A stretch of 64,000 bases of DNA from a virus (taxonomy: Duplodnaviria > Heunggongvirae > Uroviricota > Caudoviricetes), in IMG/VR virus record IMGVR_UViG_2706794662_000007. One strand, written 5' to 3'. Within the stretch, counting starts at the first letter, position 1, and each line of letters opens with the position of its first letter. Positions 3,871 to 63,327 of the stretch are shown here, piece by piece. The position numbers were made by a program, and so were the translations under genes. The notes below the pieces were generated by a model that ran no database searches, was not told where the DNA came from, and saw only the letters and a list, made by a program, of their open reading frames with translations.

Positions 3871-4568
3871 TACATACGCTCCTTGTAGTAGTCGACCAGC
3901 CACACCAGAGCCTCACCAGCGTTCTCCATTTCATTACCGGTGTTAATAGCCTGCTCTTTGATGATGTTTTTTATGGTTTCTGCAACACGATCTGACGCAT
4001 CGAAAGTTACTTTGAAGCGCATGGTCTGATGTTCCGCCCCCACACGTTCGGTTTTCTCTCGTTTGTCGGTATCGACAGGCTCATCACTACCACGAGACAA
4101 CGCCTCCAGTGCTTCAAGGTCGATTGCCGCCTCTTTTGCTAAAACCATCGAGATTTCGTCGTCATACGGGGCGATTTCAGACAGTTGATAGTCAAGTTCT
4201 GACTGAATTTCTTCAATGAAGCGTTGCAATGCGATTTGGTCGTCTTCACCGTATCGCTCGTTGTCCACCAGTGACATCTGTTTAGCTACGACATCGCTAA
4301 TTTTGCCCACAGAAAGCACTGGAACCGTTGAAATTCCTTGCTCAATAGCGGCACGCCAGCGATGTTCGCCGCCGAGGATTTCAAAAAATCCATCTTCAAG
4401 TTCACGAGCCAAAATTGGCTTAAAAAAGCCCAATTTTTCGATAGAACCTTTCAGTTTTTCGAAATTCTGCGCACCAACCGAATTGGTGTTCCAGGTATTC
4501 GGGCGAAGGTTGGCAACATCAACCTGCAAAATCGTGATTTTTACGTCCATTTTATTGCTACAATCCAC
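3870..4568 (-). CDS. ParB N-terminal domain protein (paralog of neighbour)
   Basis: ParB-NTD motif ILGGEHRWRAA; first gene of leftward operon; motif B upstream at 4567-4589. Confidence 0.65.
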   Translation of the reverse strand: MDCSNKMDVKITILQVDVANLRPNTWNTNSVGAQNFEKLKGSIEKLGFFKPILARELEDGFFEILGGEHRWRAAIEQGISTVPVLSVGKISDVVAKQMSLVDNERYGEDDQIALQRFIEEIQSELDYQLSEIAPYDDEISMVLAKEAAIDLEALEALSRGSDEPVDTDKREKTERVGAEHQTMRFKVTFDASDRVAETIKNIIKEQAINTGNEMENAGEALVWLVDYYKERM

Positions 4569-4632
4569 TAAGTAATCACTTACTTATTATAATAGCCAAA
4601 TAACATACAAAAGGCACTAAGGAAAGAGGTTT

Positions 4633-11049: not shown

Positions 11050-11126
11050 GATGGTTTCCTTATCAAGTTGCTTTCAGTGAAAGCATTTTCACAAATCAGA
11101 TAAGGCAGAAAACAAATTGTTATCGG

Positions 11127-11575: not shown

Positions 11576-11632
11576 AGTGTCTTGGTTATTTTTCTATTTT
11601 ATAGACATAGGTATGTACTTACAATACAAAAA

Positions 11633-25126: not shown

Positions 25127-25187
25127 ATGTTTTTCTCTTATCGTTTAGTTATTACATTCTTACACAAATTAAGTAAGTATTTACCTA

Positions 25188-26892
25188 TCATTTAACGCGT
25201 TTGAAAACGTATACGCTGACTGTGATCCCTGTGTCTTCAAACTCGTTGGTAAACGACTTCCCTCTGGCATAAACGTAATTATCCATCGTCATCCAGTCCA
25301 GTATTGGCGCNNNNNNNNNNNNNNNNNNNNNNNNNNNNNNNNNNNNNNNNNNNNNNNNNNNNNNNNNNNNNNNNNNNNNNNNNNNNNNNNNNNNNNNNNN
25401 NNNNNNNNNNNNNNNNNNNNNNNNNNNNNNNNNNNNNNNNNNNNNNNNNNNNNNNNNNNNNNNNNNNNNNNNNNNNNNNNNNNNNNNNNNNNNNNNNNNN
25501 NNNNNNNNNNNNNNNNNNNNNNNNNNNNNNNNNNNNNNNNNNNNNNNNNNNNNNNNNNNNNNNNNCCAGATCGGCGTTAATATAGGCCAGAAGATCCCCA
25601 CGTCCGGCTTGAGGCTCCAACAGCTTCTCACCAGGCTTCAATTCAGTGGCTCTGGCAACGTACTCAGCAATCAAGCGTGGGGTAGGGTAGAACTGGTGTG
25701 ATTTTGTATCCGGTATTAAACCGGTAGCCACAATCGTATTTAGCGTATGGCCGATCTCATACGGGAACTGCCAGTGCTTTTTCTCCTGCACGCCGCCAAT
25801 GAAGCTCAGTGTGCGCTCAAGCTCTTCCACCTGCGACTTCTGGAGAGCTGAATCAGAGAAGTACCATACGCCTTTGTCTTTGCTCAATCGCCCGTCACGA
25901 AGCGCAGTGCGAACCGGCACGGAGATCGTCTTCTGGATTAACCCGAACTGCTTTGGTGCCCGTGTTTTTGGCGCAGTTCGGCATGGCGCGGGGATTGCAG
26001 CAGGCATACTGTAAGCCAGCACCTCATTCAACTTCCAGGCCACGTCAGGATGTATTTCAAAGTGAACGTTGCCGTTCTTGAACATCTTCACGCGCATCAG
26101 ATTTCCATCGACGTTCATCCAGTCACCGGTCTGGCAGTCGTTTGCCCGATACGCAGCTGATAGCACCTCAGCAGTGCGGTTGATGGTAATAAATTCTTTG
26201 TGCGCGAAGAAATGAAGCAAGACACGCAGATCGTCGATGTAGTCCTCTTTGCGATAGTTCACGCTAACGCTGTCACGCCAGAAATCAGAAATGCAGTCAG
26301 CGATTATCAGACGCTCGCTGAAACCGTTTGTCTTATTTGTCTTGTGCGCAGGACTCAGCGCCTTAAACAAGCCATACACGCGCTCAGAGAGATATTTGTG
26401 CCTGTCATTCAGCAAATTAAGCATCGTTGGTATGACCGTTTCTGCTTTGAACTCCGGTACACCAACGAACTCTTTAACCTTCATCTGATAGCCGGTTCTG
26501 TCAGTTTTGATGACTTCCTGCTTGCCCTCGATAAATAGCTCACGCCACTCGTCGCGACGGGAAGCTGGCATGATCAGCAGAACGTTAGTCATATCCGTAA
26601 CCTTCCTCCAGTACTCGGCCCAAATATTCTGTTTCACCCATTCCAGATCGACGTTATCCAGCCAGACTCGATTCAAACGTGAGCGATCTTCATCTGGTCG
26701 GTGGTTTAGTCGAAGCAGGCGATTAATCATGTTGTGGCGTTCATCGCCATAAACGAAGTCGTGTACCTGATACATGAAGGAGATCTCTTTCTCGCACTCG
26801 GCCACAATTTCGTGGATGACGTTCATTTCCTGTCGATAGTCGATAGCAGTGTTTGAGCTGGCATCGCCCATGATGGAAAGGGCTGTATTCAT
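25188..26892 (-). CDS. putative N6-adenine DNA methyltransferase with large N-terminal extension (C-terminal part masked)
   Basis: FYPTPRLIAEYV followed by EPQAGRGDLLAYI (motif X then motif I, gamma-class order) just before the N-run; the catalytic (D/N)PPY region would lie in the masked part. Confidence 0.45.
25311..25565. other. N-run
   Basis: 255 n. Confidence 1.
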
Positions 26893-29535: not shown

Positions 29536-30051
29536 TTAGTCACAGCATGATCCTGAGTAACTGGATGAACTTGAGGTATCGCATCCACCGTCATCCCATC
29601 CAGAGTGACAGGTCGCTCTACTGGAGTGGTGGTAATTGTCGTCGACGGAGGTGTGGTGATGGATGAATCCGGCATCAAAAGGCTCTGACCGGCTGGAACG
29701 GCTACCGTCGCCAGTGAAACTATAATGAGAACGTAGGCCATTGGTTTCAGCCTCTTTCTTTGAAAATTTTCCATTCGAACTGTCCTTGTTGTTTTTCTCC
29801 TTCACTAAAGGCCGTGCATTTTTCGCTTCGCGTGAAGAACCAGAGGCAACAATCGCCCACACGTTCGCAACAACTGACGCTTGATTATCTAAACGTTCAT
29901 TCAGCAACCGAACGGTAGTCTCTAGTTCATCAAGGCGTGACATAACACGACCGCTAAATAATTCGGCCAAAATTTGACGTAAAGAACGAGGACGTTTAGT
30001 TACAGAAGTGAAATAGGTTTGACGTGCCATGTGGACTCCATCCAGTGTCAT
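29536..30051 (-). CDS. hypothetical protein (3' end ambiguous; overlapping alternative frame 29523-29774)
   Basis: N-terminal part MARQTYFTSV... is plausible; C-terminal low-complexity tail is doubtful. Confidence 0.3.
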   Translation of the reverse strand: MTLDGVHMARQTYFTSVTKRPRSLRQILAELFSGRVMSRLDELETTVRLLNERLDNQASVVANVWAIVASGSSREAKNARPLVKEKNNKDSSNGKFSKKEAETNGLRSHYSFTGDGSRSSRSEPFDAGFIHHHTSVDDNYHHSSRATCHSGWDDGGCDTSSSSSYSGSCCD

Positions 30052-30175
30052 AAAGAGTTGCGGCTGGCAATCGCCAGCCGCCTTTCTCGTTCCATCCTGG
30101 AACTGTGTCTTACCGACACATTGTCATCCTGACGCCGATAAGATACATGATTTATAATGATAGGTAAACACTTAC

Positions 30176-30769
30176 TTACTGTTTGTTATAAACAAAACCA
30201 ATATCTTTCTTGTGAGGCATATCTGCTGCTGAAAAAGCTGCGATCTTCGCGAGTCGATCACATATTTCATTTTCACGATGCCCGGCGTGACCTTTAACCC
30301 ACTTCCAGCGAACATTATGTCGACTTGCGGCCTCATCCAGACGCTTCCACAGATCAACATTCTTTACCGGTTTTTTGTCAGAAGTCATCCATCCATTGCG
30401 TTTCCACCATTTCATCCACTGTGTCATGCCGTTTTTCAGATACTGGCTATCAGAGTGCAAAATAACGTTGCATGGATATTTCAAACGCTCCAGCCCGATA
30501 AGTGCCCCCATCATCTCCATGCGGTTATTGGTGGTGCTATGAAAACCATCTGAGAACTCGCGTTCCTCGCCACGATACTGGAGAACGATACCGTAACCGC
30601 CCGGGCCACCCGGATTTTTAAGGCAAGAGCCATCACTAAAGATTTTCACGGTTTTAAGCTGGGGATTGAACTCTACGACAGGCGTTGTGGGATTGGTGCG
30701 GGGAGAATTTTTGTTTTTGTCTTTTTTGCGAGTTTTTGCTTGCGGTCGGGCTGGTGTCTTCGTTGTCAT
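30176..30769 (-). CDS. rnhA: ribonuclease HI
   Basis: [19 protein letters not shown]...HSDSQY...[16 protein letters not shown] matches the RNase H fold catalytic pattern; start set to MTTKTPAR. Confidence 0.85.
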
Positions 30770-31350
30770 ATAAACTCCTGAATCAAGCGCCGCGCCGATT
30801 TTTCCTCGCGCGTGCGCACACGCGTGCGTGTTAATAATTATTAAAATAAACAAATTACTTCCCAGAACAGGTTTTTATAAACCTGAACTGAACGAACGAA
30901 GTGAGTGAAGTTCACCTCGAACGAAGTGAGAGGTTGTCTTTTCAGGTAATACTCTCCCAGGGAGGTGAGTATAAAATTCCTCACCAACCTGGTCGTTTCA
31001 TAACCTGAAAAGCTATGGTCTAAGTCTACTGCCAGCTTAGACTTGGGAAGTTATGGATGACAGCACCCCAGAACCGAGATCTTCCCACACTTTATGAAGG
31101 GGAGTACTGGATTCAACCTCTCGAAACACCCCAGACTCGACAATCATAAAGTGACCCTTGTCTCCGCTCACTTTGGTTCCCCCTTCCCCGACACCTAAAC
31201 GGCACCGGTTCTACGCTGGTAGTGAGCTTTTTTAAACCTGACGCCAGTGACGCTTACCCCCACCCATCAGGTCGAGTCTCCAGTCTACGACTGGAAACTA
31301 TCAGATCTTAGCACTTACAATTCATCTTATGAATAGTTTGTACTTATCTA

Positions 31351-31581
31351 TCATTTCGATTGATTATTTTCTCGACCATGTAGTTGAACATTCAAGGCAA
31401 ACACCTCGTTGATCAACTCACCTAAAAGCTGTTCAACAAGTTCGCGATGCTCCCCAAGATGCAAGCACTTAATTGCCCACTCGTACAAGTTGAAAGCCTG
31501 CTCACGATCTTTCATCATTTCACGAGCCTGGGCCAGAAAATCGCTGTCTACGAGCGCAACGACATTAGTCGGGTATGACAT
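31351..31581 (-). CDS. hypothetical protein
   Basis: Start MSYPTNVV with AAGGA ribosome-binding site. Confidence 0.4.
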   Translation of the reverse strand: MSYPTNVVALVDSDFLAQAREMMKDREQAFNLYEWAIKCLHLGEHRELVEQLLGELINEVFALNVQLHGRENNQSK

Positions 31582-31689: not shown

Positions 31690-31746
31690 CTGCTTCCGTA
31701 TATTAATAATTAATATGTAGTTATTTATATATATACAGAAGCAGGC
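31690..31746. repeat. long nested inverted repeat element, copy 2
   Basis: cctgcttccgtatat...atatatacagaagcagg, same architecture as copy 1. Confidence 0.7.
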
Positions 31747-31768
31747 TAATTACAGACGCCAGAACAAA

Positions 31769-32362: not shown

Positions 32363-32544
32363 CTTCTTTCTCGATAGGTAAGTAAATACCTATTTTTGCA
32401 TTTGATTTTATGTATGGCAATCAAATAAAACGCGCCAGAAATGCGAACAAGAAGCTCTCTGGCGCGTTTTTTTGGTGCTGGGTATGGGTTATCTTACCCA
32501 GCACTATAAAGCTCTCTATGGGCTTTATTTTCAGTAGGGGAACG

Positions 32545-37198: not shown

Positions 37199-37279
37199 AA
37201 AACCTCACGAAGATAAGTAATCAATTATTTATCACGTGAGTTTACATTCATTGATAAAACAAGACCAGATAGATAAAAA

Positions 37280-41916: not shown

Positions 41917-41949
41917 TGTTAATAGATAAGCACTTACCTATCAATGAAA

Positions 41950-43272: not shown

Positions 43273-45195
43273 AGCTGCGCCCCTCTTTAACTTCCAGCGT
43301 AATAGTTTCCCGGAACCATGACTTCATCTCTTTATGGGAGATAATCAGCACAGTACCTCGCTCGCGAGCTTTGGACTCCAGAATACCCATGAGGCGTTCA
43401 AGACCGGCTGTATCGAGTGCATCGTCAATTTCGTCGCCGATAAACAAATCGATGTTTTTACTCGCCCGGTTACTAACCAGATCCTGCAATGCCAAAGAAC
43501 ACGCAATGCGAACCTTCCGCTTCTCACCACCAGAGAGGGTCTGGAACGACTTACTTGAACCTTTCTTCTGCACACTAATGTTGAATTTGTCGCGATACTC
43601 ACCTTTTTTGGTGACATCCATCGTCGACCACTCAGCAGTAATATTCCCGTCAGACAACGTATTGAGATACTCGGCAGTGCGTGTATTCAGGAAAGGCGTA
43701 ACAGACGTCAAAATATGAGAACGCACCCCGGCAGGAGAGTAGACCTGACGAGCTTTTTCCAATAGCAACGTTTGTTCCTGAATAGCCTTCAACTCATCTT
43801 TTAAGGACTTGAAGGTAGACTTACTGGATACCAGGTTATCTTCGTGTCTGGCGATAAGAGCAATAAACGGATTAATCTCTTTTGATATACGATCGACCTC
43901 AGTACGAGCACGAGTCACAAGAGACTCAATAGCAACAATCTCCTTCTCACGATGACGCAAAGATGAGAGTTGTTTCGTAAGCTCTTCAATCCGGGCAATG
44001 ATAGCCGTTACATCAGGTGTCGTTTTAACAAGGGCAGACTCAATGCTTAACGCTTTCTCAAGATTCGTTTTGTGTTTAGCCATTGCCTCTGCAAGTGTCT
44101 TCGCCTGACCAATTTCCTGACGTGCTTGTTCAATGAAATTCTCCTTCACCGTTGATAGATCTTCTTCGCAGTAGGCTTTGCCACAAGTAGGGCATGGTGA
44201 TCCCACTTTAGTACCAACCTCTTCTGCTTTGGTCTTAAAATTACGCGCGCGGTTCATTGCATCAGCCTGACTATTTTCTGTAGCTTTGATGCTTGCCCGA
44301 ATATCAGTTATCGCACCACGAACNNNNNNNNNNNNNNNNNNNNNNNNNNNNNNNNNNNNNNNNNNNNNNNNNNNNNNNNNNNNNNNNNNNNNNNNNNNNN
44401 NNNNNNNNNNNNNNNNNNNNNNNNNNNNNNNNNNNNNNNNNNNNNNNNNNNNNNNNNNNNNNNNNNNNNNNNNNNNNNNNNNNNNNNNNNNNNNNNNNNN
44501 NNNNNNNNNNNNNNNNNNNNNNNNNNNNNNNNNNNNNNNNNNNNNNNNNNNNNNNNNNNNNNNNNNNNNNNNNNNNNNNNNNNNNNGATTGTCGACTCCA
44601 ATTTGGTTTTAACCACATCCATACGTGCGGCAGCTGCATTAGCTCGCTCACGAGCAATAGCGTAGGCGCGTGTCAGTCTGTCAACGCCAGCGGCTTCTTC
44701 TACGATGGTTTTGAGGTTTTTGTCGGACATTCCAGGTAAATCTGGCATAGCTTCTTGGCTCGCATAGATGGAAGCCATGAAAACCTCTTTAGATGCACCG
44801 ATCAGACGCTCGACGAACTCTTGCGTCAGCGCATCTTTGCCTTTCGTCATATCGCCGTCTTCACCACGAACGATAAGCCGATTTTTGAACTCTTTGTGTT
44901 TACGGTGACGAATGATCGCATATCTCTTGCCTTCATCCTCGATGGTTACTGCAACACGACAGTTCTTTTCATGGTCGGTAGACAACACATCGTCACCCTT
45001 CACACCATGAGCTGTTTCGCCATAAAGACACCACATCAGGCTATTCATTAGCGTTGACTTTCCAGAGCCATTACTTGATGCGGAACTATCATCACTATTA
45101 ACACCCTGAATGAGCACTAAACCACGCTGATCTAACTCGACCTCCGCGCTGGCGATAGCCATAAAATTCTCAACCTGGAGCTTTAAAAACTTCAT
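43262..45195 (-). CDS. SbcC/Rad50-like ATPase (gp46-like), interrupted by N-run 44324-44586
   Basis: N-terminal Walker A GSNGSGKST; C-terminal signature LSGGEKRK and Walker B LFIGDEID; coiled-coil middle. Confidence 0.8.
44324..44586. other. N-run
   Basis: 263 n. Confidence 1.
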
Positions 45196-46510: not shown

Positions 46511-46764
46511 GTGTTTTTCCTTTGTGGTTATTTTGATACAAATTTTAAGAGCAATGAGAAGGTAAACAACTATGCATAACGGTATGTTAGGAATGAAACG
46601 AGCGTCTTAATATACAAAATTTATAAGTAAGTATATACCTATTTGTTGTGGCGCAACTTTGCTTGTCTGTATGACTAAAAATAAGACAGGATCACTGTAG
46701 AACGCTATGAGAGCTATTTTGAGGAGGCGTAGATTCTATCTACGCCAATATACGATCTGGAGGG

Positions 46765-49404: not shown

Positions 49405-49617
49405 TTAGTGTATTTTCTTTAACAGACCCCAAAGTGTACCGGCTTTTGTAGTCAGTTTTCCTGTTTCTGGATCGTACATACGCCATTCACGCCGCTGGTG
49501 GACGATATACCCATCTTCACGTTCCAGACGCTCAAGAATGCCAGGCTGCTTGAAACCCTTAGCACGCCAGTAGCCGCTTGTTTTCTCGATTTCCAGACCT
49601 GCCAGTGTTAATGCCAT
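49405..49617 (-). CDS. hypothetical protein
   Basis: 70 aa ORF; hairpin 49373-49394 downstream. Confidence 0.4.
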   Translation of the reverse strand: MALTLAGLEIEKTSGYWRAKGFKQPGILERLEREDGYIVHQRREWRMYDPETGKLTTKAGTLWGLLKKIH

Positions 49618-49952
49618 TACCCAACCTCCTTGCAGTCATCGAAAAGGTAGCTTTGCTGAGAAGCGTGAACGCCATAGAAGCCCTTGTATTTGTTGTATAC
49701 GAAGTGGTCTTCTCCGACGCCGGTTAATTTGCCATTACGATTTGTGAGATATGGGGATGACAACACTCGATCGTCACGCACAACATAGAACTGGTCGCCG
49801 CTGTCTACGACCATCGCTCCATATGGTGCTTTTATGACGTCGGTAAGAGCGCCATTCTTAACGTCGGCTACAGACATTTCACACTGATAAACAGTGGTGT
49901 CGGCCACAACGATCGAAGAAAGAAACAACAGCGCGAATGGGATGGTCTTCAT
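49617..49952 (-). CDS. secreted protein with signal peptide (hypothetical)
   Basis: MKTIPFALLFLSSIVVA N-terminus. Confidence 0.45.
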   Translation of the reverse strand: MKTIPFALLFLSSIVVADTTVYQCEMSVADVKNGALTDVIKAPYGAMVVDSGDQFYVVRDDRVLSSPYLTNRNGKLTGVGEDHFVYNKYKGFYGVHASQQSYLFDDCKEVG

Positions 49953-50128: not shown

Positions 50129-50167
50129 GATAGGTAGATACTAACTTATATAAACTTTACTGTAAAC

Positions 50168-50498: not shown

Positions 50499-50924
50499 TC
50501 AATCTTCTTGGTTAGGGAAAAACTGTTCAATAACTCTGTCAACGGCTGTGTCTATATGGAGTAGATGCCACACAACCATATCTTTGCTTCCCATGCCTTG
50601 TGTGAATATCACGTCATACTTACGCCATGCGCAGTGGAACCAATATGCTGAGTCATCAATTGGTAAATCCTCTCCCGCCTCTTTGAAGTATTTCAGCAGC
50701 ATTGCCTGCTCTGCCGTTGGCGTTGGACCTATTTCCTGAGCGTACATACGGATGAATCGCTGCCAGTCTGTCTCGTCGGGGGTTGGATCTGGTGGGGTCA
50801 TTTCTGCGATAGCGTTTCGTAGCTGATGCGCCCAATCAGGTTCAGGAAAGCCTTTTGCTACTTCATCATCAATAACATCCAGAGCCACGTTTGCGGCATC
50901 GTAGAGTTTCTTAATTGCTGCCAT
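50499..50924 (-). CDS. hypothetical protein
   Basis: 141 aa ORF. Confidence 0.45.
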   Translation of the reverse strand: MAAIKKLYDAANVALDVIDDEVAKGFPEPDWAHQLRNAIAEMTPPDPTPDETDWQRFIRMYAQEIGPTPTAEQAMLLKYFKEAGEDLPIDDSAYWFHCAWRKYDVIFTQGMGSKDMVVWHLLHIDTAVDRVIEQFFPNQED

Positions 50925-50985
50925 GTTTACTTCTCCTTATAAATAGGAAAATAATCACCTTTGAAAAAATAAAGCAAAGATATAT

Positions 50986-51395: not shown

Positions 51396-52136
51396 TTATG
51401 GCAGTAATTCTTTACCGCTTTCCATTTTGGTGATAGAGACAGTAGGATCATCGTTAATGCATGATTCTGTGCCTAATGCTGCTAACCCTTTACGCATAAC
51501 CGTGCCCGCAACATACGCCTCAATCTCCGCCTTTCCAGATGAGACAATTTCATCCATTTGTTCCTGCATTAATTCGGTAGCAAAGCACAGATTTTCAGGA
51601 AGGTTAGCTACAGCAGATGCTAGTTTTCTATATAGTTCTTCAAGGTCACGTTTTCCAGCTCTTCCTTTTTTCACAAGTTCACCTAGCTCTGAAACTTGCT
51701 GATTAAGTCGATCAATCTCACTATTCGTAGCGGCCTTTATTTGATCGTTGAATTTTTGCCGAATACTTTTTTGCTCGGCAATATCATGAACTCTAATTGA
51801 GTCTCCAATGGTTTTATATGAAATAGTGCATGGCACACCTTCGCCCACTCCAAAACTGCTAACCATAGCAGCCCATTGTGCCTGGCTAAGTCTAATTTCA
51901 ACTAAAGGCCGTCTATTGCAACTTCTTTGTGGGCGGGTTCGTTCATTGTCTAAGGACAGTTCCGCCTCGTAAACGCCTATTTCAATATAGTCTCTATGTT
52001 CCAGTTCTGAATCAAATAGGCGAATGCCAGTTGTGCTAACACGGCTTGTTTTCACAAGACCGAACGCTGGATGTGTTTGAATTTTTTCCCCATGTTTATT
52101 AAGGGTCGTTTTTGGTTCTTCAATTTTTCTTTTCAT
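51396..52136 (-). CDS. hypothetical protein
   Basis: 246 aa ORF. Confidence 0.5.
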   Translation of the reverse strand: MKRKIEEPKTTLNKHGEKIQTHPAFGLVKTSRVSTTGIRLFDSELEHRDYIEIGVYEAELSLDNERTRPQRSCNRRPLVEIRLSQAQWAAMVSSFGVGEGVPCTISYKTIGDSIRVHDIAEQKSIRQKFNDQIKAATNSEIDRLNQQVSELGELVKKGRAGKRDLEELYRKLASAVANLPENLCFATELMQEQMDEIVSSGKAEIEAYVAGTVMRKGLAALGTESCINDDPTVSITKMESGKELLP

Positions 52137-52183
52137 CTTATTAACCTCTATGCTTCATGCGTAAAGCTAAATGACAATTTTTT

Positions 52184-53008
52184 TTAATATCCGGCGTATT
52201 CGTATTCTTCATTTAGACCGTATTCTTGTGGAGTGATACCAGGACAACATAACTCAAAGGCGAACTTGCGCCATTTGATTTTTTCTTCTGACGATTGTTT
52301 GTTATTCGCCGGTGCAATGTAGTCATATTCCCATTTGCCGTTGCGAAGTAAAATGAATCCGCAGTTATTGCCGAAGTCTTCGTCTGCATAACGTATTACA
52401 AACTCAAGGTGCGGGAACTTTCTAGCCATCGCTTGATAAATTGGTTTTGGCATAGACCAGGCTGTTTCAAAGCGAATCACCAACTCACCACCAGTTGCGG
52501 CATGTCTTGCAAGACGTTTTTTATAGATTCGTTTTGCATATGCTCGAACGTGTGTATGGCGGAAATTATGGCCGTACTTAATACGTGTAGGGATACGTTT
52601 TACGGGCATTTCGATGTTGTAGGCATTCCATTTTGTTCCCCAATTAGCTCGCGACCAGTCAAACCATGAGTAATAGCCATAGCGACGATAATTCTCAAGC
52701 CGCATAAGAGCCTGCTCTTTGATTTTGCGAATTTCCTTGCGTGTCATTCCTGATTCACGCATAGCTAATTCGACCTGTTCTGGAGTCTTTAATTCACCGA
52801 ACATGTGGTCGTAAACTGTTTCGCCCGCCATTGCAGAGGCCATGCGCCTGATATGATTGTTTTCTTCCATTTCTATACTTTTCGGACGTCTGCAAATGGT
52901 ATTAAAGTCAATTAGACCTTTTTTGTTAGTTATGGCACGTATGAAATCTAAGCGTTGTTTATTTGTACCACCTATGACTCGGATTTCGTTTGTAATGTGG
53001 TTGGGCAT
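52184..53008 (-). CDS. hypothetical conserved phage/plasmid protein
   Basis: 274 aa; YGYYSWFDWSRANWGTKWNA motif; motif A at 53013-53031 upstream. Confidence 0.5.
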   Translation of the reverse strand: MPNHITNEIRVIGGTNKQRLDFIRAITNKKGLIDFNTICRRPKSIEMEENNHIRRMASAMAGETVYDHMFGELKTPEQVELAMRESGMTRKEIRKIKEQALMRLENYRRYGYYSWFDWSRANWGTKWNAYNIEMPVKRIPTRIKYGHNFRHTHVRAYAKRIYKKRLARHAATGGELVIRFETAWSMPKPIYQAMARKFPHLEFVIRYADEDFGNNCGFILLRNGKWEYDYIAPANNKQSSEEKIKWRKFAFELCCPGITPQEYGLNEEYEYAGY

Positions 53009-53067
53009 AATTAACTTAACCTTTTAACAAATTGTTTTCTTGTGTGTGATAATAACGAGAATAAAAC

Positions 53068-53086
53068 GGCGTCCAACTGGACGCCT
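53068..53086 (-). terminator. terminator hairpin
   Basis: ggcgtccagttggacgcc followed by T-run on minus strand. Confidence 0.55.
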
Positions 53087-53103
53087 GATCTTCTTAATGA
53101 GAG

Positions 53104-53934
53104 TTATTTCACTGTAATGAAAGGAGTGTTAGCCCCTTGAGTCATGTACTGCGGTAACTGGCCATTCCATTTATTGATGGCTTCCAGTTCCATAACGTTC
53201 GGGTTTTGACGCAGAGCTTCACCGCGCAGACGAATGGCGTCTGCTTCTGCTTGCGCACGAGCACGGATAGCATCAGCTTCACCATTAGCCTGTTCACGTA
53301 GCATATTCGCCTCAGCTTTACGTTGTTCAACTTCCTGCTGACGTTGCAGAGTACGCTGGTTAGCCGTTACTTTGGCGTTGATAGATTCAATGACGGTTTT
53401 TGGGTAATCAGGCTTTCCAACCCATGACAGGCTCAGTACCTCAATACCAACCGGAGACATCTCTTTCTGAATATCTTTCAGTGCGTTGTCCAGCAATTGC
53501 GCCTTACCACCGTCGATAAATGAGTCAGTGGTCATACGGCTGGCCAAACGGTTTAGAGAGTCGGCAATTTTCTGACGCAGATCTGATTCGGTGATATCGT
53601 CTACGCCTTTGCGATAGGTCTGGAACACCGTCGTTACCTTGTCACGATTAACCAGATACGCAACGCCAATTTTGTGACCAATAGCAGTACCGTCACTCAT
53701 CTGGAATGTGAACGGTTCGTCGTAGGTCTTCATTTGTTTGAAGGTCGGGAATACGTAAAGTTCGGTGTTAAGACCTGTCCATTGGCGACCAACGCCAACC
53801 ACTTCACCGATCCCTTTGTCTTCACCTAATTTGTTTACTTTGATGCCAACGTATCCAGGCTCCACGCGATCACAGCCAGTAAGACCCATTGTGCAAATAG
53901 CCGCCAGAGCAACTGCAAGTAAACCTTTCTTCAT
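53104..53934 (-). CDS. SPFH/band-7 domain lipoprotein
   Basis: Lipobox-like MGLTGC at N-terminus; SPFH-type body with coiled-coil A/E/R-rich C-terminal region. Confidence 0.7.
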   Translation of the reverse strand: MKKGLLAVALAAICTMGLTGCDRVEPGYVGIKVNKLGEDKGIGEVVGVGRQWTGLNTELYVFPTFKQMKTYDEPFTFQMSDGTAIGHKIGVAYLVNRDKVTTVFQTYRKGVDDITESDLRQKIADSLNRLASRMTTDSFIDGGKAQLLDNALKDIQKEMSPVGIEVLSLSWVGKPDYPKTVIESINAKVTANQRTLQRQQEVEQRKAEANMLREQANGEADAIRARAQAEADAIRLRGEALRQNPNVMELEAINKWNGQLPQYMTQGANTPFITVK

Positions 53935-53937
53935 TAC

Positions 53938-54138
53938 TTATTTCCCCTTTGCTTTGATTAATGAGTTGATAAACTTACGACCAGCAATAAGACCGATTAC
54001 AGGAGCACCAAAACCAACGATAACTCCAAACATGACGGCTAAATCACTCTTGGTAGAAATCAGCGACGGAACCAGTAAACCGTAGATGAGAGCCACTGAA
54101 ACGCCTGTGGCTACTGCCAATAGATAGATTTTGATCAT
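53938..54138 (-). CDS. small two-helix membrane protein upstream of SPFH gene
   Basis: 66 aa, IYLLAVATGVSVALIYGLLV and VMFGVIVGFGAPVIGLIAG; 3 nt from SPFH start. Confidence 0.45.
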   Translation of the reverse strand: MIKIYLLAVATGVSVALIYGLLVPSLISTKSDLAVMFGVIVGFGAPVIGLIAGRKFINSLIKAKGK

Positions 54139-54205
54139 GTGTTTTCCTATGTGGTTGTTATGCGAAAATAATAAGTAAGTACTTATATATTTTCAAGAGA
54201 TAAAA

Positions 54206-54226
54206 AAGGCGTCCTGTGGACGCCTT
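54206..54226 (-). terminator. terminator hairpin
   Basis: aaggcgtccacaggacgcctt followed by T6 on minus strand. Confidence 0.6.
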
Positions 54227-54230
54227 GTGT

Positions 54231-55321
54231 TTACTCTTCTACTGACTCGGTGGGGTTGTCTTTTGCTCTTCGGTCGTCGATTGCCTGCAAAGCCGCAATG
54301 ATTTCAGCCAGTGGCTTCTCCCGATACATCTCGACGATCTGCGATTTGGTGTATTTCTTGTCACCAATTTCAACTCGCCCGCTGGCGTTCTTTGGCAGGT
54401 ATCCTTCTTCCAGCATGTACTCGACGAGCGATTCGATAACGTCGAGGCCACGAGTAGGATCGAAGTAGAATTTCCAGGTGCATTTGCCATACGGTGGTGC
54501 AACTTTGTTTTTGATGCATTCTGCGCCTACGTCCTGGCCGATCTTCTCTTTACCATCCTTCATCACCGATGCACCAAGACGGATACGTACAGAAGCGTAG
54601 AACTTCGGTGAATCTCCACCTGGAGACGTAGTAGGGTCGCCAAACATTACACCGATTTTTGTGCGAACCTGATTCAAGAAGATGATGCAGGCGTTGTATT
54701 TGCGTGCCCACAAAGCCAGAGTAGGGAAGTTCGCACTTGTCGCACGAGCCAGTGCCGTATTGTCGTTCATGTTTAGCTGATCTTTGTCTTTGGCAGTGCC
54801 TTCAGCCATCTTTTCGAACTTCTCGGCTTTGGAGTTCGGAACCATAGACGCAAGTGAGTCAGCCACGATACAGATAGGTGCTGATTCAGGAATAAGCTCT
54901 TCATCACGTACCAATTTAAGAATTGTGCCGATCAACTCTACAGAGTCTTCGAAGGTATCAGGCTGCTTGTATACCCACTGACCGTCATCCTCATCTGCAT
55001 TCAAACCATTGGCTACAGCCAGGCCAACGTCAAAACTGTTCTCATGATCGAGGANNNNNNNNNNNNNNNNNNNNNNNNNNNNNNNNNNNNNNNNNNNNNN
55101 NNNNNNNNNNNNNNNNNNNNNNNNNNNNNNNNNNNNNNNNNNNNNNNNNNNNNNNNNNNNNNNNNNNNNNNNNNNNNNNNNNNNNNNNNNNNNNNNNNNN
55201 NNNNNNNNNNNNNNNNNNNNNNNNNNNNNNNNNNNNNNNNNNNNNNNNNNNNNNNNNNNNNNNNNNNNNNNNNNNNNNNNNNNNNNNNNNNNNNNNNNNN
55301 NNNNNNNNNNNNTTTTGCCAT
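54231..55321 (-). CDS. RecA-family recombinase (UvsX/RecA-like), interrupted by N-run 55055-55312
   Basis: C-terminal part ...IIFLNQVRTKIGVMFGDPTTSPGGDSPKFYASVRIRLG matches the RecA core (loop L2 region); N-terminal ATG at 55321; Walker motifs presumably masked. Confidence 0.8.
55055..55312. other. N-run
   Basis: 258 n. Confidence 1.
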
Positions 55322-55323
55322 GA

Positions 55324-55596
55324 TCAGGCTCCTTTTGTTTCGTTGATTCGTTTTAAAGCGGCGGATTCGTCGAATACAATCGCATCGTGGTTAAGGAGTC
55401 TGGATACACGAGCGAGGATTTTTACGACCTGCTCGCTGACTAATCCAAACTCGCGATCTGTCGCTTTCATTCCGGCAGCGCCTAGAATTGACGGCAGTGC
55501 GATGACAGCGTACTCACCGTGATAAAAGACAATCTCTTTTGCCAGTTGGGTAGGGGTGGTTGTAGCGCCATTAATAATCGATTTAAGCATTAGCAA
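55324..55596 (-). CDS. hypothetical protein
   Basis: 90 aa ORF. Confidence 0.4.
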   Translation of the reverse strand: MLMLKSIINGATTTPTQLAKEIVFYHGEYAVIALPSILGAAGMKATDREFGLVSEQVVKILARVSRLLNHDAIVFDESAALKRINETKGA

Positions 55597-56534
55597 TACC
55601 TTTCGAATGGAAGAACAAACACTTCAAGGTCTTCAAGGAACGAACGGAAATTCAGCTCGTAGCACAGTTGCTCGAATGCTTTCACGTCACGATTGCCTTT
55701 GATTGTTTCGATTTCGGTAGGCGGAAACTTCGTCTCAATCAGGTTCATTAGCGTGATGTTTCTCTTGAACGCTTCGAGCATTCGACAGCCTGTTTTCTCG
55801 TTGAAGGCATTCTTCGCTAGTTTGTTGAAGGCGGTCTTATGGCGTCCTTTGTCAACCACGATTGAGCCGTCGTTGATGCCGCGTACCATCGTTGCGACAC
55901 TTCCCCATTCATGCAGCAGCTCTTTCGCACCGCCAGCACCAATGCCACCAACACCGCTAATGTTGTCCGATTTATCGCCTTGTAATGCTTTTGCTTCCAA
56001 AAATGCGCGAGGAGTAGCGAATCCTGTCAGCTCCGCAAATTGCTCAAAATTAACCTGCTTGTTTTTGGCGTCTTCGCGCAGGCTTACCCAGCTTACGTTT
56101 TCGCGAACTAACTGAAGCCAGTCGCTATCGCCTGTTAACAGATAGATGTGTTCAACAATTGGCTGCGGTGCAATGCTGGCTACCAGCAGCCCGGCCAGAT
56201 CATCCGCTTCTGCATCTTTTGCAATGAGTTGGGTAACTCCAAGCGCGGTCATCATTTTGAGGATGTATGGCTTCTGGATAGCAAAGCCTTCCTTCATCTT
56301 TTTCATATCAGGATCGTCGTCGCGATTTGCTTTGTAGTCCGGGTAAAAGTCGCGACGCTTGTCACTAAATCCATCCCAAAGAATCATAGGTCGGGCATGG
56401 AGGATGGAGGCATAACGACGGACGTTCTTAACAAAGCCGAAAGCAGCCTGTACTTCCATTTCGCCGTTGTGCAATTTGTCAGATTGTTGGTGGTAATAAC
56501 CCAGGCTATTGCCATCTACGAAGAGATAATTCAC
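55590..56534 (-). CDS. 5'-3' exonuclease / flap endonuclease (FEN family)
   Basis: NYLFVDGNSLGYY, EADDLAG, LLTGDSDWLQL, GDKSDNISGVGGIG; start set to GTG after GGAAGGA ribosome-binding site, because the longer track ORF runs through the ssb terminator hairpin. Confidence 0.8.
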   Translation of the reverse strand: MNYLFVDGNSLGYYHQQSDKLHNGEMEVQAAFGFVKNVRRYASILHARPMILWDGFSDKRRDFYPDYKANRDDDPDMKKMKEGFAIQKPYILKMMTALGVTQLIAKDAEADDLAGLLVASIAPQPIVEHIYLLTGDSDWLQLVRENVSWVSLREDAKNKQVNFEQFAELTGFATPRAFLEAKALQGDKSDNISGVGGIGAGGAKELLHEWGSVATMVRGINDGSIVVDKGRHKTAFNKLAKNAFNEKTGCRMLEAFKRNITLMNLIETKFPPTEIETIKGNRDVKAFEQLCYELNFRSFLEDLEVFVLPFERYC

Positions 56535-56552
56535 CGGTACATTCCTTCCAAA

Positions 56553-56578
56553 AAGTAAGGCGTCCGTAGACGCCTTAC
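56553..56578 (-). terminator. terminator hairpin after ssb
   Basis: aaggcgtctacggacgcctt followed by T-run on minus strand. Confidence 0.5.
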
Positions 56579-56594
56579 TGGTCACGTAATGGGA

Positions 56595-57623
56595 TTACAG
56601 AGAGTCCAGCTCTCTCAGTAGGTCATCCAGACCTTCATCTTCCGTCGCAGATGCGGCTGCTACAGATGTCGCTGCGACTGCTTCAGACTCTTTGACTGAT
56701 ACGGCAACGGCAGCGGAACTTGCCTCTGGTTTAAATTCAGTTTCAACGGCACGGAGGATTTCTTCATCAACCAGACTGGTTGGTTCAGAAGCCGGTGTGT
56801 GCGCGGTTGCTACAGCCGTCGCTCCTTCTGTATGACCAGTGACAGAGCCAAATCCAGGTAGTGCCGCAGCCGATGTTTTCGCGGTTGAGGAAATTGCTGG
56901 TGCAGATGCTGCGGCAGTTGGTGCAGCGATGCCAATCAGACGACCCATAGTGCGAACTGTCGACAGAAGACGAGTTTCATCAGCCTGATTTGCGTATGCG
57001 ATCAGATCATGCTGGGTGTTCCAGAATTTATCTTCGATATCGCCTTTGTAGACTTTACGCTTAGGCGAGACGTCATATTTGGTATCGCGACCAGAGCCAG
57101 TACGTTTAATCAGGAATGCGTAGCCTTCCTCTTTGCTCAGTGGATTGCCGATATCATCAGCGATGTCTTCGGTGATTGCTTTGCAGATATCATCGAATAC
57201 AGTAGACGGCAGCTCGATTAATTGGCATTTCTCAGCATCTGCGAAATCCTCACGAGCAGAAAGAATGCCGTTGACCAGGTAGCGAGGAGTGGCACGCATT
57301 TGACCGATGCGTTCTTCCATTGCTTTGTTACCCTTGTGACGAGCGCGACCTTCCATCACCATTTCGCATAGCTGACAAGCGCGACCGTGAGTATGTTGCT
57401 CACAAATATAAGCGTTGGTTGCTTCTTTACCTTCCTCGTTCTGATACTTAACGTAGTGCATACCGAAAGTCTGGAAGAACTTACCGTTTGGGTCGTCTTT
57501 ATTCGGGAAGATGCGGATATAGTTGACGCCGTCTTTTAAGCGAGTCAGATCAACGTTGTTGCCACGTTTGGCGGCAATGTCTTCACGAGTTTTGTTAAGC
57601 AAATCAAGTAATGTCTTAGACAT
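56595..57623 (-). CDS. single-stranded DNA-binding protein (gp32-like)
   Basis: Zn-ligand-like C/H cluster YICEQHTHGRACQLCE, A/S/T-rich linker, acidic tail DEGLDDLLRELDSL. Confidence 0.6.
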   Translation of the reverse strand: MSKTLLDLLNKTREDIAAKRGNNVDLTRLKDGVNYIRIFPNKDDPNGKFFQTFGMHYVKYQNEEGKEATNAYICEQHTHGRACQLCEMVMEGRARHKGNKAMEERIGQMRATPRYLVNGILSAREDFADAEKCQLIELPSTVFDDICKAITEDIADDIGNPLSKEEGYAFLIKRTGSGRDTKYDVSPKRKVYKGDIEDKFWNTQHDLIAYANQADETRLLSTVRTMGRLIGIAAPTAAASAPAISSTAKTSAAALPGFGSVTGHTEGATAVATAHTPASEPTSLVDEEILRAVETEFKPEASSAAVAVSVKESEAVAATSVAAASATEDEGLDDLLRELDSL

Positions 57624-57740
57624 GTGTTTCTCCTTGTTGTGATTTGGCCGATGGCGCTATGCGCGTTGGGCTTTCGTTCATTCGTGGCTCTTTCGAGCTG
57701 TTAAATGATAGATCAGTACTTACTTATTATCTATCAAAAA

Positions 57741-58172
57741 TCAACGGGGAGTAATAAAGCGTTCAGAGCCTAATCGCTCTAATTCAACGATGGCCATCTT
57801 TGACGCCTGAACGATCATGTCTCGGCGATGCGAAAAGGCGGCGACAGCATGTTTGTATATGTCTGCTATGTGCCGTGCGTCATCCAACTTCTGACGTTTA
57901 GATAGATACTGTGGGTTCGTTTTAACCTTAGCGTCCAGTACAGACTCGTTGAACTTAATGCCGTTCATACTCAAGTTCTTACGCTCTGTGTCGTATAGCT
58001 TTGCTTCAACAGCTTCAAGGTTAAGTTTTGCCTCTGCGACACTTCTTTCTGCATGAGCGAGTTTTGAGCCATACTCCATTAAAAGGCGGGGTTGTCTACG
58101 CCAGACTTCCTCCAGATTGTCTCGGTCAAACTCGAGATCAGACATTATTTTCTCGTAAATATCGGTGATCAT
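57741..58172 (-). CDS. hypothetical protein (helical; possible recombination mediator)
   Basis: 143 aa ORF between ssb and dnaE; function not recognised. Confidence 0.45.
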   Translation of the reverse strand: MITDIYEKIMSDLEFDRDNLEEVWRRQPRLLMEYGSKLAHAERSVAEAKLNLEAVEAKLYDTERKNLSMNGIKFNESVLDAKVKTNPQYLSKRQKLDDARHIADIYKHAVAAFSHRRDMIVQASKMAIVELERLGSERFITPR

Positions 58173-63232: not shown

Positions 63233-63327
63233 GCGTTTTTCCTTTGTTTTCTAATGAGCTTTCAACTTCTTATATAAATATACCATCAAATATCGTAAGT
63301 GATTACTTATCATTAAGGCTATTCTAA

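Follow-up and report, generated by a model that had tools for sequence, protein, structure and literature searches.

In phage P1, the plasmid prophage is silenced by one repressor, C1, which acts at many scattered operators of 17 bp that are asymmetric in sequence and lie across the -35, the -10 or the +1 of sigma-70 promoters (ssb, dam/ban-type and replication units), and the late genes are placed under the separate control of Lpa. Mycobacteriophage L5 and Cluster A phages employ the repressor gp71 and 24-30 stoperators, 13-bp asymmetric and orientation-dependent sites that occupy short intergenic gaps at early as well as late genes; many of the L5 stoperators stand apart from any promoter, with a presumed action on elongation, which they would block. 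On plasmid RK2, KorB binds 12 dispersed palindromes and silences promoters, and in the bacterial host the nucleoid-occlusion protein SlmA, a member of the TetR family, binds as a dimer of dimers.

The window analysed here, a stretch of 64,000 nucleotides, corresponds to an SSU5-like phage-plasmid and is 100% identical to Shigella sonnei pAUSMDU00010534_01, the differences from this closest record being N-masked runs and not biology. Phage-plasmids of the SSU5-like type occur commonly in E. coli, Shigella, Klebsiella, Salmonella, Yersinia and Enterobacter, and their lysis-lysogeny control is essentially unstudied; searches of the accessible literature returned nothing on SSU5 operators and no published description of the sequence examined here, a 20-bp palindrome termed motif B. 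Motif B is real, and it is probably the operator of a symmetric helix-turn-helix protein that negatively controls most lytic units of the SSU5-type phage-plasmid. From the sequence we infer the binding of a protein, its repressive effect and the identity of the candidate binders discussed below.

The proposed role of motif B is close to that of the P1 C1 operators, since in both cases a plasmid prophage would be silenced by one repressor at many scattered sites placed over core elements (-35, -10 or +1) of sigma-70 promoters; it differs from them in being a 20-bp perfect palindrome and in preceding structural genes as well. The initial annotation had proposed a comparison with repressor operators of related phage-plasmids, which yielded no relation to P1 at the sequence or protein level: no homologue of C1, Coi or Lpa was detected at E<0.1 (phmmer against the 1175 ORFs of the element), and motif B has no match in the first 50 kb of P1, the segment scanned. 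P1-type systems were rejected on these grounds. As with the KorB operators (OB) of RK2, a dozen or more identical palindromes lie on a plasmid on which one protein would exert global silencing, and ParB-family proteins are encoded here too; the sequences are unrelated, however, and to our knowledge neither parS nor the KorB operator resembles motif B. With the stoperators of L5 (Cluster A immunity is treated in PMC6550527) motif B shares the large number of sites and their location in short intergenic gaps across modules, namely replication, metabolism and structural genes, but motif B and its flanks are symmetric, host and phage lineage are unrelated, and a roadblock action at motif B is presumed.

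Sequence, enrichment and placement of motif B

The consensus of motif B is a perfect 20-bp palindrome composed of the half-sites ATARGTAAGT and ACTTACYTAT. A search with the degenerate palindrome ATARGTAAGTACTTACYTAT at no more than four mismatches identifies 10 non-overlapping copies in the window, to which others may have to be added, as seven N-masked runs, mainly inside annotated or predicted ORFs, possibly hide further copies. These ten and the weaker matches of interest are given without a strand:

4568..4587, copy with 3 mismatches, in the divergent ParB-like / DEAD-helicase region
25169..25188, copy with 2 mismatches to the degenerate consensus, located 42 nt ahead of gene 24422-25126, the head of an Ea22-like operon
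30160..30179, copy with 3 mismatches, overlapping the rnhA stop codon, 129 nt upstream of 29536-30030
32374..32393, copy with 2 mismatches, 11 nt before the start of dam, at about +1 of a predicted TTGCCA-17-(TG)AAAAAT promoter (dam)
37213..37232, copy with 4 mismatches, 14 nt before the start of the thymidylate synthase gene
41922..41941, copy with 2 mismatches, upstream of nrdA, flanked by the stop of the RuvC-like gene and a terminator hairpin, overlapping TTGATA-17-TAACAT
46623..46642, copy with 2 mismatches, 112 nt upstream of sbcD
50130..50149, copy with 3 mismatches, upstream of 49617-49952 and a Cra-like gene, overlapping TTTATA-16-TATCAT
54171..54190, focal copy with 2 mismatches, reading ATAAGTAAGTACTTATATAT on the plus strand
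57708..57727, copy with 2 mismatches, 84 nt upstream of a T4 gp32-like SSB gene (56595-57623), overlapping TAGATA-17-TATCAT
11607..11626, weak copy with 5 mismatches, directly after a terminator, upstream of 11168-11563
31332..31351, weak copy with 5 mismatches
50943..50962, weak copy with 5 mismatches, 18 nt upstream of 50499-50924
63291..63310, weak copy with 6 mismatches (1 to the SlmA core rule), upstream of a cobS-like gene

The chance level at four mismatches, estimated from 100 dinucleotide-preserving shuffles of the window, averages 0.02 copies and never exceeds 1, and at five mismatches 15 copies are found in the window versus 0.50 expected. Every one of the copies is intergenic (10/10 at four mismatches, 15/15 at five) in a window of which intergenic DNA makes up 13.5%. 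The shuffle of intergenic sequence alone, set beforehand as the refuting test, leaves the enrichment in place, with 9 copies observed versus 0.03 expected; these enrichment figures are somewhat circular because the consensus was built from the same copies, but the margin is very large. The AT-rich dyad that the initial annotation had described as repeated upstream of many genes is in this way confirmed. The interval then assigned to it at the focal site, 54170-54188, is displaced by 1-2 nt from the actual 54171-54190, and among the copies then listed those at 4567, 25170, 32376, 37212, 41924, 46623, 50130, 54170 and 57704 are strong, whereas those at 63295 and 11607 are weak. Additional copies had been placed in the loops of nested inverted repeats (1082/1089 and 31709/31713), where the matches reach the five-mismatch level only and show a different arrangement, ATAAGT-T-ACTTAT. 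The distinction from motif A stands, as a second palindrome, AGAAAACAAnTTGTTT, presumably motif A, marks other intergenic regions, and the sole gap with both palindromes is 952-1147, whose B match (5 mismatches, in an inverted-repeat loop) is doubtful.

At the level of the whole 108-kb element, motif B is present in 27 copies, 26 of them intergenic, which fall in 25 of the 72 intergenic gaps. Throughout the element, the palindrome precedes or flanks tail-fibre, minor-tail, tail-tube, capsid, scaffold, portal and replication genes, and units of the membrane/SPFH, Ea22-like and ParB-like kinds have it at their head in the window as well, so that the regulon of DNA-metabolism genes originally suggested does not hold. 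Since the same site stands before early-type genes (nucleotide metabolism, recombination) and late genes (capsid, tail), it is not a temporal-class promoter signal. A single 20-bp site marking about 25 lytic transcription units would define a regulon, predict the promoters that are silenced in the plasmid state and offer targets for mutation. Conservation extends to individual copies: the one in front of the gp32-like gene at 57708 is kept in 42 distinct relatives, and the same palindrome-promoter cassette as at 54171, located inside the portal coding region, is kept in 50 distinct relatives, among them a clade whose protein identity is 60%.

The focal site and its promoter

The focal copy lies within a promoter of the form TTGAAA-N17-TATTAT, where it takes up the spacer together with the first 3 nt of the -10; the elements of this promoter are the following:

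54206..54226, minus strand, intrinsic terminator of the upstream RecA-like gene, directly before the promoter/operator cassette
54191..54196, minus strand, -35 hexamer TTGAAA, invariant in 25/25 distinct relatives
54168..54173, minus strand, -10 hexamer TATTAT (TATCAT in relatives), its first 3 nt being the last 3 of the palindrome

This promoter (minus strand, 54196-54168), which serves the operon of a 66-aa membrane protein and the SPFH protein, matches the sigma-70 consensus at 10/12 positions and is the best minus-strand match between 44 and 64 kb. Accordingly, the earlier statement that the dyad lies over the spacer and -10 of a good sigma-70 promoter, in the position expected for a repressor operator, is supported. 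The 6-kb query around the focal site (window 52000-58000) is matched by 791 plasmid records. Among 25 distinct relatives, a 30-bp block, CTTGAAAATATATAAGYACTTACTTATYAT, comprising TTGAAA, the palindrome and TATYAT, is near-invariant, while in the same relatives the downstream protein is only 56-74% identical and the flanks of the block have diverged. The terminator stem at 54206..54226 shows compensatory changes among relatives. It has been reported for Cyrano, a 97%-identical phage-plasmid, that CYRAN_56/57, the genes behind the focal promoter, are absent from the genes expressed in the lysogen, and that ciprofloxacin induces this element 39-fold (PMC9928086). That the genes behind a promoter with 10/12 identity to the sigma-70 consensus are not among the lysogen-expressed ones counts in favor of the operator model.

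Geometry of the sites and nature of the signal

The arrangement found at the focal site is not general. The initial annotation could be read as giving motif B a fixed position over spacer and -10, a geometry that applies to only about 4 of 23 sites; elsewhere the palindrome lies in the spacer shifted by 3, at +1 (dam), immediately ahead of a terminator (nrdA, capsid) or at a distance of 2-18 nt from the ATG. Overlap with a core promoter is observed at 54171, 57708, 50130, 41922 and 32374, at the portal-internal cassette, which is outside the window, and at the repressor-gene promoter, and it is not evident elsewhere. The -35 match is poor at most sites, with a mean of 3.1/6, and only 4/23 sites reach 9/12. 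Matches to the -10 in the flanks of 23 sites, scored in both directions, amount to 3.70 on the gene side and 3.83 on the other side, with no directional asymmetry. The symmetrised matrix of the 23 sites contains about 21 bits and is palindromic, with two independently conserved half-sites about one helical turn apart, a property shared, like the overlap with core promoters, with Cro/CI-type (Xre HTH) operators of temperate phages. As the geometry is variable and the flanks are symmetric, the sites suit repressor operators or roadblocks and not an activator box.

This bears on the idea that motif B is an activator-dependent promoter element that replaces the -35, on the model of the 9-bp '-22 box' of P1 Lpa, with a phage-encoded activator, made after induction, that would turn on every B unit. 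The lack of a good -35 at most sites is what such an element would show, and the TAT at the end of the palindrome often has YAT after it, which creates a -10-like TATYAT with the dyad centre near -19.5. P1 late promoters, in which AAGTKACTT is followed by 4 nt and a -10, likewise have a short AAGT/ACTT palindrome shortly before a -10-like hexamer, a -35 that is weak or missing and a place before many operons, and the centre of motif B, AAGTACTT, is similar to the P1 box; sigma-70-like matches are moreover depleted in the element (17 versus 29.6 and 24 versus 31.6 expected). However, the P1 late box has 9 bp and a fixed 4-nt gap to the -10, whereas the flanks of motif B are symmetric, which makes the 'YAT' a part of the palindrome and not a directional -10, and its geometry relative to predicted promoters is variable. 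Seven sites lie 2-18 nt from the start codon, with no space for a transcript with a ribosome-binding site, two family-conserved sites already have a near-consensus -35 and -10, early-type and late genes share the same site, and no Lpa homologue was found on the element. Activation through motif B is consequently considered unlikely.

The perfect symmetry of motif B also raises the question of whether it operates in RNA, or as a passive signal. Folding of the palindrome would give a hairpin, which could act in processing or stability of intergenic RNA, and position 4, being A or G, yields TAA or TAG, so that the motif could provide stop codons in two frames per strand. Nevertheless, departures from the consensus in the arms are one-sided in 60 cases and compensated in 1, variation at position 4 is independent of that at position 17, A.C mismatches occur as often as G.U, and the predicted hairpins are weak, from -2 to -7 kcal/mol. 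The independent conservation of the arms, with no compensatory pattern, favors a site of protein-DNA contact over a hairpin in RNA. No Rfam family and no tRNA was found in the window, and a hairpin or cruciform was rejected in view of the one-sided changes, the weak folding energies and the absence of an Rfam match. Stop codons do not explain the conservation of G5, T10/A11 and C16. In favor of an RNA-level or passive role, unrelated contigs of Acinetobacter, Pelagibacter-type and cyanophage origin also carry the exact core (TAAG)2TA(CTTA)2 in intergenic DNA; but the exact motif search, which in 2.9 million viral contigs gave 75 stretches, 47 of them SSU5-like, assigns the other 28 to 9 clusters (Acinetobacter temperate phages, Pelagibacter-type podophages, cyanomyophages and singletons), approximately the number due to chance, estimated at about 8 in AT-rich DNA. 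An RNA-level or passive role is hardly credible.

The operator model leads to the following proposal. Where the palindrome occupies the spacer, -10 or +1 of a sigma-70 promoter, as at the five window sites named above and the portal-internal cassette, a bound protein would exclude RNA polymerase; where it lies just after a stop codon or 2-18 nt before a start codon, the protein may act as a roadblock to read-through, as modelled on the dispersed P1 C1 operators and the L5 'stoperators'. Through some 27 sites in 108 kb, silencing of the plasmid prophage would proceed unit by unit, and loss or titration of the protein, for instance by genome amplification after induction, would release all units. 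Not all of the sites show an obvious promoter that could be repressed, an observation that speaks against the operator model. At 41922, G 87542, G 94439 and G 103557, a GC hairpin or terminator follows 4-9 nt after the site, a feature for which the operator model does not account.

Candidate binding proteins

The leading candidate for the protein that binds motif B, with a likelihood put at somewhat under even, is the 128-aa Xre-type repressor of the element (WP_014962299.1), a homologue of CYRAN_45 of Cyrano encoded just outside the window. A core dyad, GGTAAGYRCTTACC, is located at about +1 of the TTTACA-16-TAATAT promoter of the repressor gene, in a site that reads ATCGGTAAGCACTTACCAGA; this dyad shows no change among 8 divergent relatives, and 93 viral-contig stretches contain the block, the contigs of the 60%-identity clade not being among the loci recovered. 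Missing from the site at the repressor promoter are the outer TA/TA positions, the most conserved part of motif B. In the protein, homologues of 55-77% identity all keep the predicted recognition helix, NNLSLIKSGK, unchanged, and 55 homologues were found, all from SSU5-like elements at >=54% identity. The structural model has an HTH of the Cro/C1 type, with C-proteins, Stl, HigA and the 434 repressor as nearest folds, all of them weak (none at E<=0.001), and a PDB sequence search with the repressor gave nothing useful. The 247-bp switch region contains one core dyad only, with no clustered multiple operators as in Cro/CI-type phage, and the divergent promoter beside the repressor gene has no full B site but other conserved repeats, TGATAT...TTGATAYAA. 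These repeats could be the real operators of the repressor. If the Xre repressor were the binder, the SSU5 group would represent a third independent case of genome-wide silencing through operators or stoperators, after P1 and the L5 cluster, and one with a symmetric site.

Other proteins have been considered. Two ParB-N-domain proteins (3202-3870 and 3870-4550) are encoded beside a B site, and the sites are numerous, dispersed and palindromic, as would be expected if they served for loading or nucleation of these proteins in a KorB-like manner, or as dispersed centromere or DNA-organisation sites. In these proteins, however, no HTH domain was detected beyond ParB_N, and nothing ties them specifically to motif B, which makes this a very improbable explanation. 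Regarding LexA, motif B does not match the box CTGT-N8-ACAG, and the only canonical box, at 18738-18757, is upstream of a UmuD-like gene; LexA control was rejected for this reason.

A different kind of candidate is provided by the host. It has been demonstrated that the 12-bp core recognized by SlmA is GTGAGTACTCAC, in which G, T, A and G are required at positions 1, 2, 4 and 5, position 3 takes any purine (a change of G to A moves the Kd from ~50 to ~60 nM) and position 6 any pyrimidine (PMC3020112). The 20-bp consensus is GTAAGTGAGCGCTCACTTAC (PMC4423959), and SlmA bound at a site within a promoter represses reporters (PMC3573117, PMC5519180). Motif B could then consist of SlmA sites, forming a dense array on the phage-plasmid through which the host protein would act as a silencer that is titrated on amplification, and/or would block the FtsZ ring; we regard this as a serious alternative, though one less likely than not. 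Aligned centre to centre, the consensus of motif B, ATAAGTAAGTACTTACTTAT, is identical to that of SlmA at 14/20 positions, the differences being the outermost pair and two tolerant pairs, and both share the skeleton N-YR-AG-YR-AG-YR-CT-YR-CT-YR-N. The core of motif B, GTAAGTACTTAC, is an exact fit to the SlmA rule GTRAGY/RCTYAC, and the probability that a half-site fits all 9 specified SlmA positions by chance is estimated at ~1.5e-5 to 4e-5. The consensus fits the specificity of host SlmA completely, and the binder may for this reason be other than a phage protein. The B matrix scores 11.7 bits on the SlmA consensus (p=6.5e-6) and 6.7 bits on the natural site SBS17 (p=8e-5), in the correct register in both cases. 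At no more than 2 mismatches to the SlmA core rule, the level of the natural SBS17 and SBS12, there are 18 of 28 B-like sites, and at no more than 1 mismatch 12 sites are found versus 2.5 expected, with no such excess in P1. The slmA gene is encoded by the hosts (it is present in E. coli K-12), no SlmA/TetR homologue was found on the element, and the 4-bp-phased sub-repeats TAAG-TAAG suit a complex with four HTHs.

Against SlmA as the binder, motif B is tighter than SlmA tolerance, with A:G 38:2 at position 7, T:C 41:5 at position 10 and A in 37/46 at position 1, and the 'critical' position 5 of the SlmA core (position 9 of motif B) is the least conserved, with G in 61%. On the B matrix, B sites score 16-29 bits among themselves versus <=12 bits for SlmA sites, and no paper on SlmA sites on a phage or plasmid was found in the searchable literature. 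The hosts of the nine unrelated clusters give no help on the SlmA question. If the SlmA reading were true, SlmA would be a silencer titratable by copy number, and its dilution by amplification would couple metabolism, recombination and virion genes to replication; as a second or additional use, activated SlmA might block the Z-ring until plasmids have segregated, or throughout lytic growth. This would be the first mobile element to exploit nucleoid occlusion, and would link phage gene timing, plasmid copy number and division.

Compared with the SlmA sites (SBS) of the E. coli chromosome, motif B is likewise a 20-bp palindrome with the skeleton TAAG-TRAG-YR-CTYA-CTTA, and its half-sites are near-identical to those of SBS17. 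In the central pyrimidine-purine steps 6-7, 10-11 and 14-15, motif B prefers TA whereas the SlmA consensus has TG, CG and CA, and at its ends motif B prefers A/T, unlike that consensus. Placement also differs, given that chromosomal SBS are outside promoters and mostly inside genes (2/24 intergenic) and B sites are promoter-associated and intergenic (26/27). SSU5-family phage-plasmids might, on a tentative reading, carry a conserved array of about 27 candidate SlmA sites, which at ~5 copies per cell would exceed the chromosome's own sites. The density of motif B, ~250 per Mb, is 25-50 times that of chromosomal SBS, ~5-11 per Mb.

Distribution of motif B across the phage-plasmid

Motif B, the repeated site described in the initial annotation, is a perfect 20-bp palindrome, ATARGTAAGT|ACTTACYTAT, present in the window in 10 copies at up to 4 mismatches (0.02 expected) and in 15 copies at up to 5 (0.50 expected). 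All copies at both thresholds are intergenic, with intergenic DNA making up 13.5% of the window. The enrichment over shuffled intergenic DNA that had been proposed as a check was confirmed, with 9 copies versus 0.03. Concerning the copies originally listed, the repeated palindrome is real, with 10 strong representatives in the window, but those at 63291 and 11607 are weak. A symmetrised matrix built from 23 B sites contains ~21 bits, being strongest at T2, A3, T6, T10 and their mirror positions, with A or G at position 4, R/Y directly outside the palindrome and merely AT-rich sequence beyond.

The window comprises 64 kb out of a 108-kb SSU5-type phage-plasmid, with nearly all its genes on the minus strand. 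These include, in order, a terminase and ParB-like region, accessory genes, nucleotide metabolism, plasmid repA, recombination genes, dnaE and cobS/cobT, while the immunity region, replication genes and virion genes occupy the other 44 kb. Outside seven N-masked runs, the sequence matches Shigella sonnei plasmid pAUSMDU00010534_01 (NZ_CP045933.1) at 100% identity; identity is 97-99% with E. coli phage-plasmids, among them p2009EL-2050 and phage Cyrano, and ~80% with Salmonella phage SSU5. The runs stand in for sequence found in the identical public plasmid and are masking, not biology; they break up metG, sbcC and a RecA-like gene in ORF lists.

9580-9843, 16400-16728, 18917-19169, 21490-21739, 25311-25565, 44324-44586, 55055-55312: N runs (250-329 nt)

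Scanning the whole assembled element (window plus the other 44 kb) yielded 27 motif B copies at up to 5 mismatches, 26 of them intergenic, and the motif is present in 25 of the 72 intergenic gaps that measure 25 bp or more. Outside the window, it precedes or flanks tail-fibre, minor-tail, tail-tube, post-capsid, scaffold and portal genes, as well as ligase and primase-region genes and the gene upstream of a DnaB-like helicase. The earlier designation as a DNA-metabolism regulon is therefore too narrow: motif B marks most lytic transcription units, early-type and late alike. The motif is mentioned in no paper of the literature searched. Its exact 18-mer occurs in 75 viral-contig stretches, 47 of them SSU5-like; the other 28 fall into nine clusters, comprising temperate phages of Acinetobacter, podophages of Pelagibacter type, cyanomyophages and singletons, roughly as many as expected by chance. 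In one Acinetobacter group a cro-like gene has the palindrome 20 nt upstream, and another copy is 47 bp away, which shows that a site of this kind can be used by an HTH protein of a phage.

Promoter placement, conservation and the sign of control

At several B sites, sigma-70 consensus matches on the gene strand place the palindrome differently relative to the promoter.

54171 (focal site): TTGAAA-17-TATTAT, 10/12 consensus matches
57708 and 50130: palindrome within the spacer
41922: palindrome shifted by 3
32374: palindrome over +1

No fixed promoter architecture was found over the 23 B sites. The -10 matches come to 3.70 on the gene side versus 3.83 on the other, and the apparent TATYAT belongs to the palindrome itself; -35 matches have a mean of only 3.1, and only 4 of the 23 reach 9/12 promoter matches. 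The next start codon is 2-18 nt away at seven sites, the preceding stop is 4-20 nt back at many, and a GC hairpin or terminator follows four sites at 4-9 nt and precedes two. This variable placement, together with the symmetry of the site and its use by early-type and late genes, argues for a repressor acting by promoter occlusion or roadblock and against an activator box. The best-known activator analogue, the -22 box of the P1 late activator Lpa (AAGTKACTT-N4-TANNNT), has a centre resembling AAGTACTT of motif B, but its fixed geometry is not found at B sites, and no Lpa homologue was found in the element. Cyrano, 97% identical to the window element, is induced 39-fold by ciprofloxacin, and CYRAN_56/57, which lie behind the near-consensus focal promoter, are missing from the set of genes that its lysogen expresses (PMC9928086), which lends independent support to repression. 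The best-supported mechanism, and a reasonably probable one, is that a symmetric HTH protein would exert negative control at promoter-embedded and roadblock sites. The operator-like reading of the initial annotation thus stands, but genome-wide and not specifically for DNA metabolism. Silencing of a plasmid prophage through dispersed operators or stoperators is a known type of control, of which motif B would be a new form.

Of the departures from the consensus, 60 affect one arm only, 1 is compensated and 3 affect both arms without being complementary; at positions 4 and 17, A.C combinations are as many as G.U. The one-sided departures and the weakness of the predicted hairpins argue against RNA pairing as the basis of the motif, and Rfam returned no family match. 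What is conserved in the arms is sequence, not pairing, as is characteristic of sites for a symmetric DNA-binding protein.

In the intergenic region ahead of the gp32-like SSB gene, conservation across 42 distinct relatives (77-100% protein identity) peaks at the site TAAGTAAGTACTGATCTAT. The focal 30-bp block CTTGAAAATATATAAGYACTTACTTATYAT stays near-invariant among 25 distinct relatives with a downstream protein at only 56-74% identity; the sequence on either side of it is divergent, and stem changes in the upstream terminator are compensatory. A second copy of this cassette, CCTTGAAAATAAGTCAGTACTTACTTATGAT, within the 3' end of the portal gene, is kept in 50 distinct relatives, a 60%-identity clade among them, against a background of changing neighbouring codons. 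Retention of the cassette amid changing flanks and codons indicates that -35, 17-bp palindrome-filled spacer and -10 are selected as a unit.

The gp32-like SSB leader (57624-57707, 85 nt) is itself highly conserved in 42 relatives and holds small hairpins, GCTCgaaaGAGC and GCGCatagCGC; by analogy with T4 gene 32, it may be a translational autoregulation operator. Across 24001-64000, sigma-70 consensus matches are rarer than in shuffles (17 vs 29.6 and 24 vs 31.6) and terminator-like hairpins commoner (26 vs 18 in both halves).

Candidate binding proteins

The two main candidates for the binder are the Xre repressor encoded by the element and SlmA, a nucleoid-occlusion factor of the E. coli host. 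A phage-encoded protein is tentatively put first, at somewhat under an even chance. The element encodes a 128-aa Xre-type protein just outside the window, beside the integrase, whose Cyrano homologue is annotated as putative repressor and expressed in lysogens (PMC9928086). Its promoter, TTTACA-16-TAATAT, carries the 14-bp core of motif B, GGTAAGCACTTACC, at ~+1. Eight divergent relatives have this block unchanged, and it occurs in 93 viral-contig stretches. Homologues of the protein are found only in SSU5-like elements, and its predicted recognition helix, NNLSLIKSGK, is invariant across 55-77% identity. The model combines a Cro/C1-type HTH with C-terminal helices, its nearest folds being C-proteins, Stl, HigA and 434 repressor, none at E<=0.001. 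These features fit a candidate autoregulated repressor with a 14-bp core operator, RGTAAG-YR-CTTACY, common to all B sites. However, the site at its promoter is devoid of the outer TA positions, the most conserved in B, and the divergent promoter next to its gene has other conserved repeats and no B site. At this divergent promoter (L003 1700-1950, the immunity region, outside the window), TGATAT-N14-TTGATAYAA repeats and a TAGTAGTAY -10 region are present in all relatives; the repeats may be operators with another specificity.

Binding of B sites by SlmA, whose published site the B consensus matches, is a serious but somewhat less likely alternative, and the remaining explanations together are less likely still. 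SlmA recognizes GTGAGTACTCAC, requiring G, T, A and G at 1, 2, 4 and 5 and tolerating any purine at 3 and any pyrimidine at 6 (PMC3020112); its consensus over 20 bp reads GTAAGTGAGCGCTCACTTAC, and the natural site SBS17 reads GTAAGTAAATGGTCACTAAC (PMC4423959). Aligned centre to centre, motif B and the SlmA consensus are identical at 14/20 positions, differing only at the outermost pair and two tolerant pairs, with the common skeleton N-YR-AG-YR-AG-YR-CT-YR-CT-YR-N. The B matrix scores published SlmA sites in the right register (consensus p=6.5e-6, SBS17 p=8e-5), 18 of 28 B-like sites are as near the SlmA core rule as natural SBS17 and SBS12, and P1 has no excess of SlmA-rule sites. Moreover, SlmA at a promoter-embedded site represses reporters (PMC3573117, PMC5519180). 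The element encodes no SlmA-like protein, and its only perfect SlmA core lies at the Xre repressor promoter. Nevertheless, motif B is tighter than SlmA tolerance predicts (A >> G at 7, T >> C at 10, A preferred at 1), the critical G at core position 5 is its least conserved position, and chromosomal SlmA sites avoid promoters, lying mostly within genes. No paper in the literature searched links SlmA sites to phages or plasmids. Were this less likely assignment true, a mobile element would be built around the host nucleoid-occlusion system, a much less expected situation. A MinD/ApbC-like ATPase gene (17192-18292, opposite strand), which may bear on any cell-division link, has a Cyrano homologue belonging to the small set of genes that lysogens express (PMC9928086).

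Other repeated and regulatory sites

A second palindrome, AGAAAACAAnTTGTTT, probably the motif A of the initial annotation, has ~16 copies in gaps other than those of motif B.

10345-10360, 11107-11122, 12012-12027, 12497-12512, 14948-14963, 14996-15011: AGAAAACAAnTTGTTT copies in the window
18839-18854, 23975-23990, 28540-28555, 29269-29284, 53025-53040: further AGAAAACAAnTTGTTT copies in the window

Most are in the accessory-gene region; outside the window, the palindrome also precedes cobT, the DnaB-like helicase and the parA region. It usually lies 10-30 nt ahead of a start codon, and four copies are reversed, in a common 45-bp promoter-like cassette. The distinction drawn between the two motifs holds, both occurring only in gap 952-1147, where the B match is doubtful (5 mismatches, in an inverted-repeat loop).

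1066-1125 and 31690-31750 (window), ~14215-14275 (L003): ~56-bp inverted-repeat element, three copies

The arms of this element are GCCTGCTTCTGTATAT...ATATACAGAAGCAGG. The motif B copies formerly assigned to its AT-rich loops are another arrangement, ATAAGT-T-ACTTAT, with the outer B half-sites 1 bp apart and not 8.

LexA boxes turned up at no antirepressor-like gene. A canonical one lies upstream of a UmuD-like gene, in parallel to humD of P1.

18738-18757: LexA box TACTGTTCATTTACACAGTA, 19 nt upstream of the UmuD-like S24 peptidase gene (18330-18719)
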